A stretch of 64,000 bases of DNA, taken from IMG/VR virus record IMGVR_UViG_3300027973_000043, positions 18,489 to 82,488 of that record, one strand, 5' to 3'. This document shows positions 25,298-57,003 of the stretch, in pieces. Position 1 is the stretch's first letter. Each line of letters begins with the position of its first letter. Position numbers and translations under genes: made by a program. The notes beneath the pieces are model-generated. The model did no database searches and was not told the DNA's origin. It saw nothing but the letters and a program-made list of their open reading frames with translations. The DNA comes from a virus.

Positions 25298-26518
25298 TCA
25301 TATTTTTAAGATATACACTCTCGATTTTTTGTTAAATTCTTCGTTCAACGACGGGCTAACCAAACTTGCGTTTGATGAACTCCCATCTCCAGAAGCGTCA
25401 ATTCGGGAAGAACTTTCCCTATAAATTTGTTTTAGATTCAAACTCGCATTTAAATCTCTGTCTATTTTCATATCGCATACCTTACATTCAAATATTCTGT
25501 CTGTCAACTTCAAATCTGAATTTTTCCATCCACAACATGAACATAGTTTAGAACTAGGATAAAAAGTATCTGCAAAGATAACTTTTCTATTATTCCATTC
25601 TGCTTTGTAAATGATTTGACGGCGAAATTCGTGAAGTCCAACATCACTAATAGCTTGCGCCAAACAATGATTTTTCATCATATTGCTCACTTTCAAATCT
25701 TCCAAAACTATAACTTGGTTTTCGTCTATAATTTTAGAAGTGATTTTATGCAAGCAATCTTTACGAATGTTTGATATGTGAAAATGTAATTTCGCTAATT
25801 TTTGTTTTGCTTTTCCATAATTTTTACTTCCTTTTTTCTTTCTGCTTAATTGTCTTTGTTTTCTTTTAAGTTTCTTTAAATTATTTTTAAGTGCTTTGGG
25901 ATTTTCATAAGCTGTCCCGTCTGAGCAAGTAGCCAGAGTTTTAATCCCTAAATCTATCCCTATTACCTCGTTCTTAGCGTCAGAATGCTCTCTGTCGGGC
26001 GTTTCTACTTGAACTGATACAAACCACTTACCCGCTCGTTTGGAGACTGTAGCAGACAATATTTTACAATCAGTAGGAATATAATCTTTCTCCGCTAATT
26101 TAAGTTTTCCAATTCTAGGTAATTTAATACAACCAGATTCAACCGAAATTACTCCATCCAATCTAAATGATTGCTTTTCGTTCTTTTTGGATTTGAATTT
26201 GGGGAATCCTTTCTTACCTTTGACCTTTTTCTTGCAACGGATGAAGAAATTTTGAAATGCTTTGTCGCAATCTCTTAGTGCATTTTGCGGCGAAGTCTTG
26301 CTTGAATTATACATCCAAGGAACATCTGATTGTTTTAGCTTGTTTAACTCTCTATGTAATTCAATAGCATTAGGAATCTTTTCTTTTTTATCAAACGATT
26401 CTTTCTTATTAGATAATGCCCAATTATATGCCCATCTAGCACAACCAATATGCTGCAATAACAAGTTTTGTTGCTTGTTATTGACATCTAGTTGAACTTT
26501 ATAGGCGCGTAAAATCAT
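25298..26518 (-). CDS. tnpB: RNA-guided endonuclease TnpB
   Basis: HTH N-terminus, RuvC GIDLG / VLEDL / DRDLNAS, zinc finger CSCC...CKVC; catalytic residues intact. Confidence 0.95.
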   Translation of the reverse strand: MILRAYKVQLDVNNKQQNLLLQHIGCARWAYNWALSNKKESFDKKEKIPNAIELHRELNKLKQSDVPWMYNSSKTSPQNALRDCDKAFQNFFIRCKKKVKGKKGFPKFKSKKNEKQSFRLDGVISVESGCIKLPRIGKLKLAEKDYIPTDCKILSATVSKRAGKWFVSVQVETPDREHSDAKNEVIGIDLGIKTLATCSDGTAYENPKALKNNLKKLKRKQRQLSRKKKGSKNYGKAKQKLAKLHFHISNIRKDCLHKITSKIIDENQVIVLEDLKVSNMMKNHCLAQAISDVGLHEFRRQIIYKAEWNNRKVIFADTFYPSSKLCSCCGWKNSDLKLTDRIFECKVCDMKIDRDLNASLNLKQIYRESSSRIDASGDGSSSNASLVSPSLNEEFNKKSRVYILKI

Positions 26519-27240
26519 TTTAATCTTTCTAAACAAATATCGTAATACTCTTGTTCCTTTTCAATCCCAATGAATTGACGATTGAGATTTTTAGCGGCAA
26601 GTAAGGTTGAGCCTGAACCAGCACAATTATCAAGAATTAATTCCCCCTCATTACTATATGTTTTAATCAGATACTCTAAAAGTTCTACGGGTTTTTGAGT
26701 TGGGTGCAACTTTCCGTTACGATTTGGGACAACTTTAAAATCTAAAACAGAACTAGGTTGAACAAAATTTGGGTCATATTTCTTTTTGATTTTATCTAGT
26801 TTTACATGATTAGAATCGCCACAATAATGGTCATAATTATAACAAGCCTTGCCAACACCAACTCGCTCTTTCATAATAGGGTTATATGTAGGTTGTTCGC
26901 GATGGAAAACAAGAATGTCTTCGTGATATTTCATTGGTCTATACTTTGCCGCCGACATTCCAGTTGGAACGTTCTTATTCCAAACTAAAGGATACTTAAA
27001 ATTTTTTCTGTTGGATAGTATCAAATCCGTGGTAAATGGTTGACTGGCAAATAATACAACTGCCGCATTAGACTTGCATATTCTGTTGTATTGTTCCCAC
27101 AATTCATCAAACGGAATAATTACATCCCATGCACAAGAAATAGTGCCATATGGTAAATCACATAAAATCATATCTATGCTCCCGTCTGGAATATTTTTCA
27201 TCAACTCTAAACAATCTCCATACCAAATTTGTTGTTTCAT
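26515..27240 (-). CDS. DNA N6-A/N4-C methyltransferase (beta class)
   Basis: GDCLELM, DLPYG, HPTQKP, LDNCAGSGST. Confidence 0.93.
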   Translation of the reverse strand: MKQQIWYGDCLELMKNIPDGSIDMILCDLPYGTISCAWDVIIPFDELWEQYNRICKSNAAVVLFASQPFTTDLILSNRKNFKYPLVWNKNVPTGMSAAKYRPMKYHEDILVFHREQPTYNPIMKERVGVGKACYNYDHYCGDSNHVKLDKIKKKYDPNFVQPSSVLDFKVVPNRNGKLHPTQKPVELLEYLIKTYSNEGELILDNCAGSGSTLLAAKNLNRQFIGIEKEQEYYDICLERLK

Positions 27241-28038: not shown

Positions 28039-28515
28039 ATATATTTACACTAAAAGTTTAGATTTTGGAAGAAAAAAGTGAAAATATTTTAACTTTCTTT
28101 AGATATTTTAGATTATCGGGTAACTGTTGTCAACCCGCCACGCCTCTCCACGATGCGAAATTTGGCGGGTTTTTTATATCAAAAACATTAAGCAATAAAA
28201 AATCCTTTTACAGAAAACATTTAAATTATGAGTGATATATATTGGCTAAACAAGGACTCTAAAGCTTTTTTACTTTTTTCTTTCTGCTTTTTTTCATAAC
28301 TTCCTGATTGAGGCGAATTTGAATATTTTTAACTTTTGAATTTAAAATGTTGCATTGTGTAGAATATCCCGGTGCATAGTGTGGACGACCTCCGCTCACT
28401 GAAACATATTTCTTTCGGCATTCATTTAATTCGTCTTGAATTTCTTTGTATTGAACTAATAATTCTTTAATAGCAGGAGAAGAATTAAAATGAATAATGT
28501 TCAAAAGATTTTTCA

Positions 28516-40789: not shown

Positions 40790-42133
40790 TTATTCGGTTT
40801 GTGAACTTTCAACAGTTTCAATATCAACTTCACCAGAGTCAAGTTGCTTGCTTTCATTTTCTAAAAAGTTAAAGCTCTTTAATTTGTAAACTTCCCAGCT
40901 ATTAGGAATGTCTTTTCTTAACACAATACCTTCCGCCCATACGTCCTTCTGACAAAGTTTACACTTCTTTTCAAGATAATCTCGAATGAGGTTATTTAAG
41001 AAGTTTTCGTGCCAATGTTTTTCTGTAGAAAGTTCAGGATATAAATCCTTAGCTTTACCACTATAATGAAGAAGAGGAGTCTTTAAACCATAACGAGTAC
41101 AATATTCCGTCATTTGAGATGGTGAAAGCTCAAAAACATCACCATCGGTATTTGTATAAGTCATTCGATAAACAAAATAATCAAGAGAGCCTTGTGGACA
41201 AGAATAATCGTAATCGCGCTGAATCATACTTCCAGTTGGAGTATAACCAACAATTTCGCCGTAAGCTGAATAACCCTTTTTTAAATGTGGATAAAGCTTG
41301 TCTGCAACAATCTTCCAAACATCAGTATCATAAAAATTGTTATTTTCTTTACCATTATCCATGATTTTATTTTTGATAACGCTACGAGAACTATAGATTA
41401 ATCCGTATTCGGTTTCAACTACATTCAATCTAAGAAATTTACCAATTTTATCAAGAAGTGAAAGCTTCTTTTTAACAATAACATTAGAAACTACAAAAGA
41501 AGTACCATGATACTTTTCGGTAATATTGATAAAATCATCTGGATTAATTTTATCAATATTACGCTTCAACTGTTCAGTAGAAGGATGGAAATGGAATTGA
41601 TTTTCAACAAGACGAGAAATGTATTTCTTAACATTACCTCTTGTCTTTTTCTTACCAGCTTCACCAAAGTTTCGCATTCCTTTTGGAATGTATTTCTTGC
41701 AAAAATAGTGTTCAAAGAAAAGGTCAAAATCACTTCCGACATATTTTTCAGTGATTTCAATCTTTTGATTCAAAATATCTTTAGCAAAAGATTCAAGCAG
41801 AGAAACAGGAACTATATATCCTTCAGATTTTTCACCACGTAATTTTACTGCTTTTACTCTAGAATTTTCTTCAAACAGACCTTTTTGTTCTTTAATACGA
41901 TTAAGTTCTTTATCACGAAAAGAGTTTGTGTAAGAAAGAAACTCTTTTGAGATTGCACACTCAAGAGGAAAATAACAATAAATTCCATTTTCAGCATTAA
42001 TACCAGTAATAACATTATTACCGAAAAGAGATGTTACTTTGAGCTTATCAGCATTAGAATGCTGACGAAAATTTTCGATTTTAACAATAGATGCTAAATA
42101 ATTAGGACTGTGATTTTGTGATTTATTGAACAT
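40790..42133 (-). CDS. RNA ligase (Rnl2/DRB0094-like)
   Basis: HSNADKL N-domain, motif I TEKYHGTS, GEIVG, EGIVL, KLKS. Confidence 0.85.
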   Translation of the reverse strand: MFNKSQNHSPNYLASIVKIENFRQHSNADKLKVTSLFGNNVITGINAENGIYCYFPLECAISKEFLSYTNSFRDKELNRIKEQKGLFEENSRVKAVKLRGEKSEGYIVPVSLLESFAKDILNQKIEITEKYVGSDFDLFFEHYFCKKYIPKGMRNFGEAGKKKTRGNVKKYISRLVENQFHFHPSTEQLKRNIDKINPDDFINITEKYHGTSFVVSNVIVKKKLSLLDKIGKFLRLNVVETEYGLIYSSRSVIKNKIMDNGKENNNFYDTDVWKIVADKLYPHLKKGYSAYGEIVGYTPTGSMIQRDYDYSCPQGSLDYFVYRMTYTNTDGDVFELSPSQMTEYCTRYGLKTPLLHYSGKAKDLYPELSTEKHWHENFLNNLIRDYLEKKCKLCQKDVWAEGIVLRKDIPNSWEVYKLKSFNFLENESKQLDSGEVDIETVESSQTE

Positions 42134-55508: not shown

Positions 55509-55861
55509 TGAATTTTTTATGGATTATCCAAAACATTTGACAAACCAACAGAAATAGAGTAATATAAAATATGAATAAACAATTTAATGTTCTTGATACG
55601 GTGTTAATGCCTGAGCCTAACGAAAGTGATGCTTGGACCTATGGCGGATTCTGTGCAGTAGTTGCTGATATTCGCGAAAATGGTAATCTAATTGTCGAAG
55701 ATCAAGACTCGGATTTTTGGGAAATTGAAGCTGAACGAGTCACTAAAGTTGAAGAAGAGTTTGACAAAGAGCTAAAAGATGATAAGTTAAGATAGTTAAA
55801 GGGAAGATTTTCCCAAGTTTGATTTAAACTGTTCTTTGACAAAATTTTTGTTAGTGTTAAT

Positions 55862-56323
55862 CCCCTTGTGGCGGAATTGGCAGACGCATTATAACGGTGC
55901 ATTTATAGAGAAATCTATATCTAAATGGTGTAAATTCAATGAACGGTTAATTTTAGATGTATGCAAGAGCGCATAAATGACGGTAAAAGTCCGTAAAACT
56001 CTAAAACTCCCAACGTTGAGCGAAATCTTAAATGACGTTAAATCTAGTATGGTGTAATTAATAAAGCCTTATGTTATCAGTTACTATCCAGACTAGGAGA
56101 TAAGGTTAATATAAGGAGACGTGCAGAGACTATAATCACCCATCTAATTTAGAAATAAACTAAAAGATGAAAGCATAGTCCAGCACACAAACAAAACGGT
56201 AAAACTTGAAATGTAAGTAATTACAAATTAAACGTTTATGGCGGTGAAAACCGTAGTTGTGATGCAGACTTAAAATCTGATATTCGTAAGAATGTGCAGG
56301 ATCGTGGCCTGTCAAGGGGACCA
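55862..56323 (+). tRNA. tRNA-Leu(UAA) interrupted by a group I intron (exons 55862-55889 and 56265-56323)
   Basis: Joined exons: CCCCTTG TG GCG GAATTGGCAGA CGC A T|CAGA CTTAAAA TCTGA, long variable arm, GCAGG ATCGTGG CCTGT CAAGGGG A CCA. Confidence 0.88.
55890..56264 (+). ncRNA. group I intron (375 nt, no ORF)
   Basis: P1 GCAU/GUGC with U.G at the splice site; R GTGCAGAGACTA (56121-56132); S AAGCATAGTCC (56171-56181); terminal G. Confidence 0.85.
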
Positions 56324-56507
56324 ATTAAATAAAAACTTTATTGAGAAATATTAGGTTAATTTGTTGGATAGAGTAATATAAAATGGAGATAAGCGGTAGG
56401 TAACGGGCCGTTAAAATATGATAGGATTTGAATAATCGCCAATCATTAAACCAAAAGACTATATTCTGAATTAAGATGGTAGTTCGATCTTCTCCTAAAT
56501 TTTAAAT

Positions 56508-56592: not shown

Positions 56593-56695
56593 AATTTCAA
56601 AAAGTTAGTTGACAAAGTTTGTTTAGATGTTAAGTTAAAGAGTTAGCGGAATTGATTTCCAAGTTATTAAACTCGTTCTTTGTTAGTAGAAAAAT

Positions 56696-57003
56696 CTTTC
56701 GCTACCTTAAAGGTGAAAGGGGCGGTTTCATTATAAAATAGTGACTTTTAACAGTAATGTTAATCGAAAATCGGAAGAATTGCTGGAAACCTGAACATGT
56801 AATGATGAAGGCAATCAGCAGCCGAGCTTGTGAATTCTAAAAAGTAACAAGAAGGTTCAACGACTAGGGAATGAGTAAGAAAACAATAAGTCTCAATAGC
56901 CTCCGAAATCCTAGTAATAGGATTATGATATAGTCTAGGGAGTTTAGAAATAAACACAAACCAGAAACCGTTTATCTGTGTTCGAGTCACAGGCGAAAGA
57001 CCA
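56696..57003 (+). tRNA. tRNA(CAU), probably Ile2 (or Met), interrupted by a group I intron (exons 56696-56731 and 56965-57003)
   Basis: CTTTCGC TA CCTT AAAGGTGA AAGG G GCGGT TTCAT|AA ACCGT TTAT CTGTG TTCGAGT CACAG GCGAAAG A CCA. Confidence 0.88.
56732..56964 (+). ncRNA. group I intron (233 nt, no ORF)
   Basis: P1 UCAU/GUGA; P AATTGCTGGAAA, Q AATCAGCAG, R GTTCAACGACTA, S GATATAGTCT; terminal G. Confidence 0.9.

Follow-up and report, generated by a model that had tools for sequence, protein, structure and literature searches.

Can a group I intron interrupt a transfer RNA (tRNA) gene inside a helix, away from the anticodon loop in which the classical bacterial tRNA group I introns (class IC3) are inserted? 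The question is raised by positions 55862-56323 of the window, by which we mean the whole 64,000-nucleotide stretch analyzed here (bases 18489-82488 of the 82,488-base IMG/VR virus record IMGVR_UViG_3300027973_000043). We propose, with a probability of roughly 80%, that this phage locus is a tRNA-Leu(UAA) gene split between positions 27 and 28, in the anticodon stem, by a group I intron that lacks an open reading frame (ORF) and would be spliced by the mechanism set out below. The gene has three parts:

55862-55889, + strand: exon 1 of tRNA-Leu(UAA), with the acceptor 5′ strand, the D arm, A26, and U27, the first base of the anticodon stem (sequence, and ARAGORN on the joined exons)
55890-56264, + strand: putative group I intron, 375 nt, no ORF of note in the ORF list (Rfam RF00028, 26.2 bits; covariance model R1, described below, 116.2 bits)
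56265-56323, + strand: exon 2 of tRNA-Leu(UAA), with C28-A31, the anticodon loop CUUAAAA, the 3′ anticodon-stem strand, a long variable arm, the T arm, the acceptor 3′ strand, A73, and CCA (ARAGORN)

Exon 1 reads ...CCCCTTGTGGCGGAATTGGCAGACGCAT over 55862-55889 and ends in ...GACGCAT; the insert begins TATAACGGTGCAT and ends ...GTAGTTGTGATG (...GTGATG), its last base being 56264; exon 2 starts with CAGACTTAAAATCTGA and closes with CAAGGGGACCA at 56323, the CCA being encoded. Joined by script, the exons are called by ARAGORN as an 87-nt class II tRNA-Leu(taa) with a long variable arm and A73, in which T27 (55889) is paired to A43 and exon 2 contains the whole of the loop CTTAAAA. A first-pass annotation made from the letters alone had predicted this full cloverleaf on excision of 55890-56264, together with the T27-A43 pair and the intact loop, and ARAGORN agrees on each count. 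The break falls between the first and second base pairs of the anticodon stem, leaving four of the five 5′-side stem bases in exon 2. Because the 5′ strand of the stem (CAGA) is present only 3′ of the insert, the break lies outside the anticodon loop, and the window intron does not share the loop insertion that marks the classical IC3 introns. The earlier placement between 27 and 28 is thus borne out, and five further distinct lineages carry an insertion at the same site.

In a blind trial, all T/G end pairs around the intron core were joined and passed to ARAGORN. With the junction in the anticodon-stem region, an 87-nt Leu(taa) came solely from 55889/56264 and from the 3-nt-shifted pair 55892/56267, which yield identical mature RNAs; shifting by 1 nt, to 55890/56264, lengthened the Leu(taa) to 88 nt, and four other calls with a junction in this region had other anticodons (Cys-gca, Ile-gat, and Leu-cag). 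Splicing could therefore be imagined at bonds a base or a few away, giving an altered anticodon stem or the same mature sequence via another bond: ARAGORN accepts 55890/56264 and 55892/56267 too, and in L015, another gene split at this site, a 1-nt shift of the splice bonds leaves the mature RNA identical. We regard such a shift as improbable, since only 55889/56264 combines a U able to form a wobble with G before the 5′ site with a G before the 3′ site, R1 places the terminal G at 56264, and the product of this pair equals uninterrupted genes. The 22 nt that span the predicted junction occur without a break in 70 viral contigs. Each of the 70 has an uninterrupted tRNA-Leu(taa) gene there, and one of these (L157) equals the joined exons of the window over nt 4-44. 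L019, which is split at 33/34, carries ACGCATCAGACT unbroken up to its own 33/34 intron and therefore has an empty 27/28 site. The same split gene was also present in an independent DNA sample (run X3) with nine letter differences over 55819-56394, one of which changes an acceptor T-A to T.G and keeps the pairing.

Standard searches overlook the gene, as the first-pass annotation had expected. At default settings, the tRNAs that ARAGORN reported in the window were tRNA-Tyr and tRNA-Arg alone; run on the whole contig with the intron option enabled, it again missed the split tRNA-Leu, as did the Rfam tRNA model in the window. tRNAscan-SE 2.0, according to its paper (PMC8450103), was not designed to detect group I introns.

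What kind of insert, then, separates the exons? Exact copies of the 20-mer at 56121-56140 occur in 18 IMG/VR loci, each of them similar to the window in the region surrounding the core and most of them within tRNA clusters. Six short relatives (196-218 nt) aligned with MAFFT and folded with RNAalifold share P2, P4-P8, and a three-part P9, with compensatory changes in 28 of 52 pairs. We built covariance model R1 (218 model positions) from these six phage tRNA introns, the window being excluded. Run against the 64-kb window, R1 matched 55881-56266 over model positions 1-218 of 218 (116.2 bits, E 4.9e-34), with the terminal G at 56264. Across 19 family members, 91.6% of cells fell in standard pairs, compared with 74.4% after shuffling and 31-39% when the 3′ partners were slid, and 35 of the 52 pairs changed on both sides; the 19-member alignment was fitted to the model, which somewhat favors the structure, and the MAFFT-only alignment of six agrees. 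The core helices P3-P8 thus occur in canonical order with the backing of covariation, though P3 (GGTG/CACC) is invariant in all 19 members and therefore gives no covariation signal either way. On its sequence, the insert does belong to a group I intron family, as had been claimed for it: P2 and P4-P9 are present and covary over the 19 members. The predicted elements of the intron are as follows:

55884-55902, + strand: P1, exon ACGCAU (55884-55889) with the internal guide at 55897-55902 (GGUGCAU region), from a local fold
55904-55919, + strand: P2 hairpin, UAUAGA-GAAA-UCUAUA with a GAAA loop; 9 of 9 pairs changed on both sides in the family
55927-55930, + strand: P3 5′ strand, GGUG with CACC at 56137-56140, forming a pseudoknot with P7; invariant in 19 of 19 members
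55935-55941, + strand: P4 5′ strand, UUCAAUG with CGUUGAG at 56014-56020; 3 of 6 scored pairs changed on both sides
55945-56010, + strand: P5 and its peripheral extension, GG at 55945-46 with CC at 56009-10, extension ~55948-56007; 2 of 2 pairs covary
56021-56124, + strand: P6 and a long peripheral extension, inner pairs 56026-29 with 56114-17; 4 of 4 pairs covary
56121-56140, + strand: R element, comprising J6/7, the P7 5′ strand (G56126, bulged A56127, GACUAU at 56128-33), J7/3, and the P3 3′ strand CACC; the 20-mer found in 18 viral loci
56141-56169, + strand: P8 hairpin, from the family alignment, model R1, and covariation (helices 8 and 10)
56175-56181, + strand: P7 3′ strand, AUAGUCC; helix 6, 99.1% of cells paired
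56186-56261, + strand: P9 domain, closing helix CACAA at 56186-90 with UUGUG at 56257-61, inner hairpins, and GCGGU-GAAA-ACCGU at 56241-56254; helices 11-13 in the covariation analysis
56264, + strand: terminal G (omega G), preceding the 3′ splice site; R1 aligns it to the terminal G of the family

The motif GTGCAGAGACT, singled out in the first-pass annotation as the R element, lies at 56121-56131. Within P7, G56128-C56180 beside the bulged A56127 is presumably the guanosine-binding pair, as in the P7 layout of Tetrahymena. The other two features claimed at the outset hold as well: when the 8 bases at the end of exon 1 are folded together with intron bases 1-22, they form a P1 with the wobble U55889.G55897 at the 5′ splice site and the Watson-Crick pairs A55888-U55898, C55887-G55899, and G55886-C55900, and the final G56264 is aligned with the terminal G of the family by R1, a model independent of the window. 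All 13 introns that we could delimit end in G, their boundaries having been chosen under that rule. The window intron is long because of its P5 and P6 extensions; in a DNA relative from run X3, six bases (GTTAAA) replace 55948-56007 and a 15-nt hairpin replaces 56027-56116. By eye, the P9 closing helix of the window intron is out of register with that of the family. A single-sequence minimum-free-energy fold (z -3.45) recovered P2, P7, P8, and the GAAA hairpin, failed to recover the full group I fold, and carries no weight as evidence.

An alternative without any intron would make the two tRNA halves separate remnants, or have them joined by an endonuclease and a phage RNA ligase, the ribozyme-like insert being incidental. 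The phage does encode an RNA ligase (ORF at 40790-42133, − strand; phrog_968, E 6.9e-51), whose role may be tRNA repair rather than splicing. Such an account would leave unexplained the precision with which a full group I ribozyme, a guide matching its own exon, and a terminal G abutting exon 2 are combined, and we give it very little credence.

If the group I reading is right, splicing would run as follows. The precursor would be transcribed as a single RNA, and the intron core, P2-P9 with the peripheral P5 and P6 extensions, would fold. The guide GGUGC(A)U at 55897-55902 would pair with exon ACGCAU to form P1, with the U27.G wobble and two 3′ bases borrowed from the D stem. Free guanosine would attack after U55889; G56264 would then enter the guanosine site in P7, and U27 would be ligated to C28 (56265). 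The released exons would refold into the cloverleaf, in which U27 pairs with A43. Catalysis itself, the exact phosphodiester bonds, and self-sufficiency without protein are what we infer from this architecture. P1 takes up two of the three D-stem 3′ bases (55886-55887). For the Anabaena intron, Zaug, McEvoy, and Cech reportedly found in 1993 that exons must pair in the anticodon stem if splicing is to occur.

Is the 27/28 site peculiar to this one record? A narrow pattern consisting of the exon end, the guide, and the start of P3 was found in three other viral contigs and eight metagenome contigs; four of the latter are complete, all tRNA-Leu(taa) with the same junction, and four are interrupted by the contig end. 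The same pattern had no match in 185,579 GTDB species genomes, a result that speaks only to that exact form. After removal of near-duplicates, six distinct lineages carry the 27/28 insertion (the window, L015, L033, L042, L044, and L048), with introns of 196-381 nt. In all six, the joined exons fold as tRNA-Leu(UAA); the acceptor and T stems differ among them and are fully compensated, and the anticodon stem of L033 has G-C where the window has A-U. Because the diverged stems are fully compensated, these genes show the pattern of working tRNAs, not of relics. The position 27/28 is a conserved one inside a tRNA helix, in phages, and so far undescribed in the literature searched.

Two other patterns also returned chance matches. 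Among the 22 loci matched by GGCAKACGCAT...GTGCAT, only L015, L033, and L042 hold the intron, the other 19 being chance; ATGCAGACTTAAAATCTG matched L015 and L043, the latter a chance match with no tRNA. As a separate observation, the T loop of the spliced tRNA-Leu (56299-56305) is unusual, reading AUCGUGG with A54/U58 in place of the usual U54/A58; similar T loops occur in L019 (ATCGTGA) and L048 (ATCATCC).

Relatives of the intron occupy other sites, most of them in the anticodon loop. In phage tRNA-Leu(UAA) genes, family members lie after U33 in L004, L005, L018, and L019 and after U34, the classical site, in L013 and L017; in tRNA-Ile(UAU), one lies after U34 (L021). Guides differ by site, being GGUGC at 27/28, GGGUC at 33/34, and UGAGC at 34/35; each can base-pair with the 5′ exon of its own gene, and the cores align closely. 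In 12 of 13 introns, P1 is predicted to include the U.G wobble; L017, which has a long P1-loop insertion, departs from this. A degenerate core pattern matched 44 contigs of GTDB genomes, mostly labeled Verrucomicrobiota/Opitutaceae, and R1 matched 39 of these. Of 36 full-length GTDB matches, 32 are tRNA(CAU) genes split after U33 (exon 1 ending GGACT, an intron ending in G, exon 2 beginning CATAATCC); none of the 36 has the 27/28 site, four being without an assigned site. A second viral scan added 36 loci, and by eye 21 of the 24 distinct R1 matches inspected are anticodon-loop junctions. The family also splits a phage transfer-messenger RNA (tmRNA) in its T loop (L168:10595-10816, with seven identical copies in L171, L173, L174, L181, L184, L187, and L188); once joined, the L168 gene is called by ARAGORN as a 389-nt tmRNA with a tag ending ...ALAA. 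The exon contexts inspected for a second match in L187 and for L192 gave no host-site assignment, and no split tRNA could be reconstructed around L008:8945-9140, L010:5353-5537, L016:5803-5987, or L014:10328-10557 (97-139 bits to R1).

The stem site is rare: besides the record that contains the window, 3 of the 56 sampled viral loci have it. In an unrooted tree of 183 core columns, with P1 left out and two branches well supported, five of the six 27/28 introns group together (support 85/87), nested among loop-site introns. Judged from this tree, the stem-site introns are members of the loop-site family. Since that family is found at 33/34 and 34/35 of tRNA-Leu(UAA), at 33/34 of tRNA(CAU), and in the tmRNA T loop, the stem site is most likely a derived one, to which a loop intron would have been retargeted through a changed guide. 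We put forward only tentatively, and rate as rather doubtful, a bolder version: that the family shifts among 27/28, 33/34, and 34/35 of one phage tRNA by guide change, presumably through reverse splicing, with the stem site derived, the D stem unfolded, and tRNA folding gated by splicing. If true, these genes would form a natural series of short-range intron retargeting within one 87-nt RNA, and a phage could benefit, for example through a timed supply of tRNA-Leu or a precursor hidden from host anticodon nucleases.

Several observations weigh against a spliced stem-site intron and have to be set beside the evidence above. No exon joint 55889>56265 was seen in the assembled contigs of four sequencing runs, two of them metatranscriptomes. 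Two metatranscriptome contigs, of runs X4 and X17, lie inside the intron only (55902-56159 and 55902-56197) and reach neither a predicted intron end nor an exon; their depths are 56.7 for X4, next to 3-4 for neighboring contigs, and 6.3 for X17, and such depth cannot rank genes. Missing exon coverage in lake metatranscriptomes shows neither transcription nor its absence and carries no weight on splicing. The Rfam group I model (RF00028, Intron_gpI) scores 26.2 bits at 55878-56189 (E 5.5e-4 in a 2.7-kb search), below its gathering cutoff of 50; of the check with Infernal and group I models proposed in the first-pass annotation, the Rfam half therefore fell short and the half with the family model R1, at full length, succeeded. 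P1 is identical across the six 27/28 lineages and P3 is invariant family-wide, so that neither covaries. P10 would have at most one base pair (by eye), and folding could be impeded by competition between P1 and the D stem. Every member is an uncultured metagenomic sequence. Finally, a single clade of all six 27/28 introns is rejected (p-AU 0.006), the L015 core falling elsewhere; on this tree, introns may have entered the site on more than one occasion, or cores may have been exchanged by recombination.

Some of these points would suit an intron that is real and has lost splicing or depends on an absent factor, leaving a disabled tRNA-Leu kept only because the insertion is recent. The lack of a spliced read, the subthreshold Rfam score, and the large P5 and P6 extensions and register-shifted P9 closing helix of the window all lean that way. 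Six diverged lineages nevertheless retain the ribozyme core together with a fully compensated tRNA, which one would not expect if the gene were dead; neither the core motifs nor the terminal G is damaged; and no other tRNA-Leu was found in the available part of the genome, the record being rated 31% complete by CheckV. We therefore think it unlikely that splicing has been lost and continue to favor a spliced intron at 27/28. Apart from this question, the contigs of runs X4 and X17, from two studies, both start at 55902, 12 nt inside the intron and directly after the guide, a weak hint of a stable intron-derived RNA end.

How does the proposed intron compare with known systems? A full-text literature search, with most subscription journals and supplements outside its scope, returned no group I intron that splits a tRNA anywhere but in the anticodon loop. 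The cyanobacterial and plastid tRNA-Leu(UAA) intron, likened here by description, resembles that of the window in tRNA species, ribozyme class, absence of an ORF, U.G wobble, and terminal G, and its site (34/35) is the one occupied in the phage relatives L013 and L017. In contrast, the window site lies 7 nt upstream, in the stem, leaving the anticodon loop intact in exon 2 of a phage gene, and its guide pairs with D-arm bases and those at positions 26-27, not with anticodon-arm bases. Williams 2020 (bioRxiv 10.1101/2020.01.27.920355) raised the bacterial intron-split tRNA classes from 4 to 21 and, citing a database, uses the IC3 label for bacterial tRNA introns. The introns of tRNA-fMet, tRNA-Ile2(CAU), tRNA-Arg(CCU), and 17 further classes described there are, like that of the window, small ORF-less ribozymes in tRNA genes; they differ in that all lie in the anticodon loop, and the pipeline tests only eight positions, around the seven anticodon-loop bases. 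The same work lists 343 cases in which a group I intron splits the T loop of a bacterial tmRNA gene. These share with the window intron a place in a tRNA-like fold outside the anticodon loop, and phage tmRNA L168 carries the same family; they differ in that a tmRNA rather than a decoding tRNA is split, and in a loop rather than a helix. The suggestion in the first-pass annotation that 27/28 was an undescribed site is thus in keeping with our search, which found no match, and with the broadest survey (Williams 2020), which tests loop positions only.

Two further systems are similar in part. Archaeal bulge-helix-bulge tRNA introns (PMC4090602) can also interrupt stems and are missed unless searched for, but are removed by a protein endonuclease and a ligase, with no ribozyme and no group I core. 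The "enigmatic" tRNA introns of Lak megaphages (Devoto 2019, PMC6784885) likewise lie in phage tRNA genes, but no intron class is named in the accessible text, and their sites were predicted with the eukaryote settings of tRNAscan-SE; those authors knew of no earlier report of introns in phage tRNAs. According to Hausner et al. 2014 (PMC3984707), all phage introns then known were in protein-coding genes.

That a stem site is conserved shows the loop rule to be in part a product of search design, the ARAGORN intron option and tFind looking only in the loop. Phage tRNA inventories, and arguments from codon usage built on them, miss genes like this reader of UUA/UUG. The family also offers a compact natural system for guide retargeting: one tRNA, one intron family, and three sites, at one of which P1 competes with a tRNA helix.

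The window contains a second split gene, tRNA-Met/Ile2(CAU), whose exons (56696-56731 and 56965-57003) are separated in the anticodon loop, after U36, by a group I intron of 233 nt (56732-56964). This intron scores 79.4 bits with Rfam and represents a different lineage, because it reaches only 22.4 bits with R1. The ARAGORN intron option miscalls the gene as tRNA-Leu(cag). Its intron core resembles unannotated stretches of Shewanella phage 1/4 and of Vibrio phages.

As for the source, the virus record has a G+C content of 30.6% and a CheckV completeness of 31%, and the window proteins include a ribonucleotide reductase large subunit, a RIIA-like protein, the RNA ligase, and a transposase. Freshwater and lake metagenomes hold DNA nearly identical to that of the phage. 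A blastn search of GenBank phages in distant mode found no close relative of the phage and no match to the tRNA-Leu intron, the only matches being to tRNA-Tyr and to the core of the second intron. A promoter scan gave 8 sites with 10.7 expected, leaving a promoter unsupported.

Other features of the window are recorded here in their own right. A transposase-like ORF lies at 25298-26536, and an abiF RNA (Rfam) match at 28134-28170 scores 44.1 bits (cutoff, 37) in a stretch of 65% G+C within this 31% G+C phage. Upstream of tRNA-Leu, a G+C hairpin (55801-55814) is followed by TGTTCTTTGACAAAA (55830-55844); CGTTCTTTGTTAG (56671-56686) lies upstream of the split tRNA-Met, and a word of the TTGACAAA type is repeated before downstream ORFs (~56606, 57093, 57362, and 58096). 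In X3 DNA, from another sample, one contig links 55848 to 56590, bypassing tRNA-Leu and tRNA-Tyr, and a second jumps back from 56623 to 56361; these joints (55848>56590 and 56623>56361) may reflect recombination between the repeated leader words.

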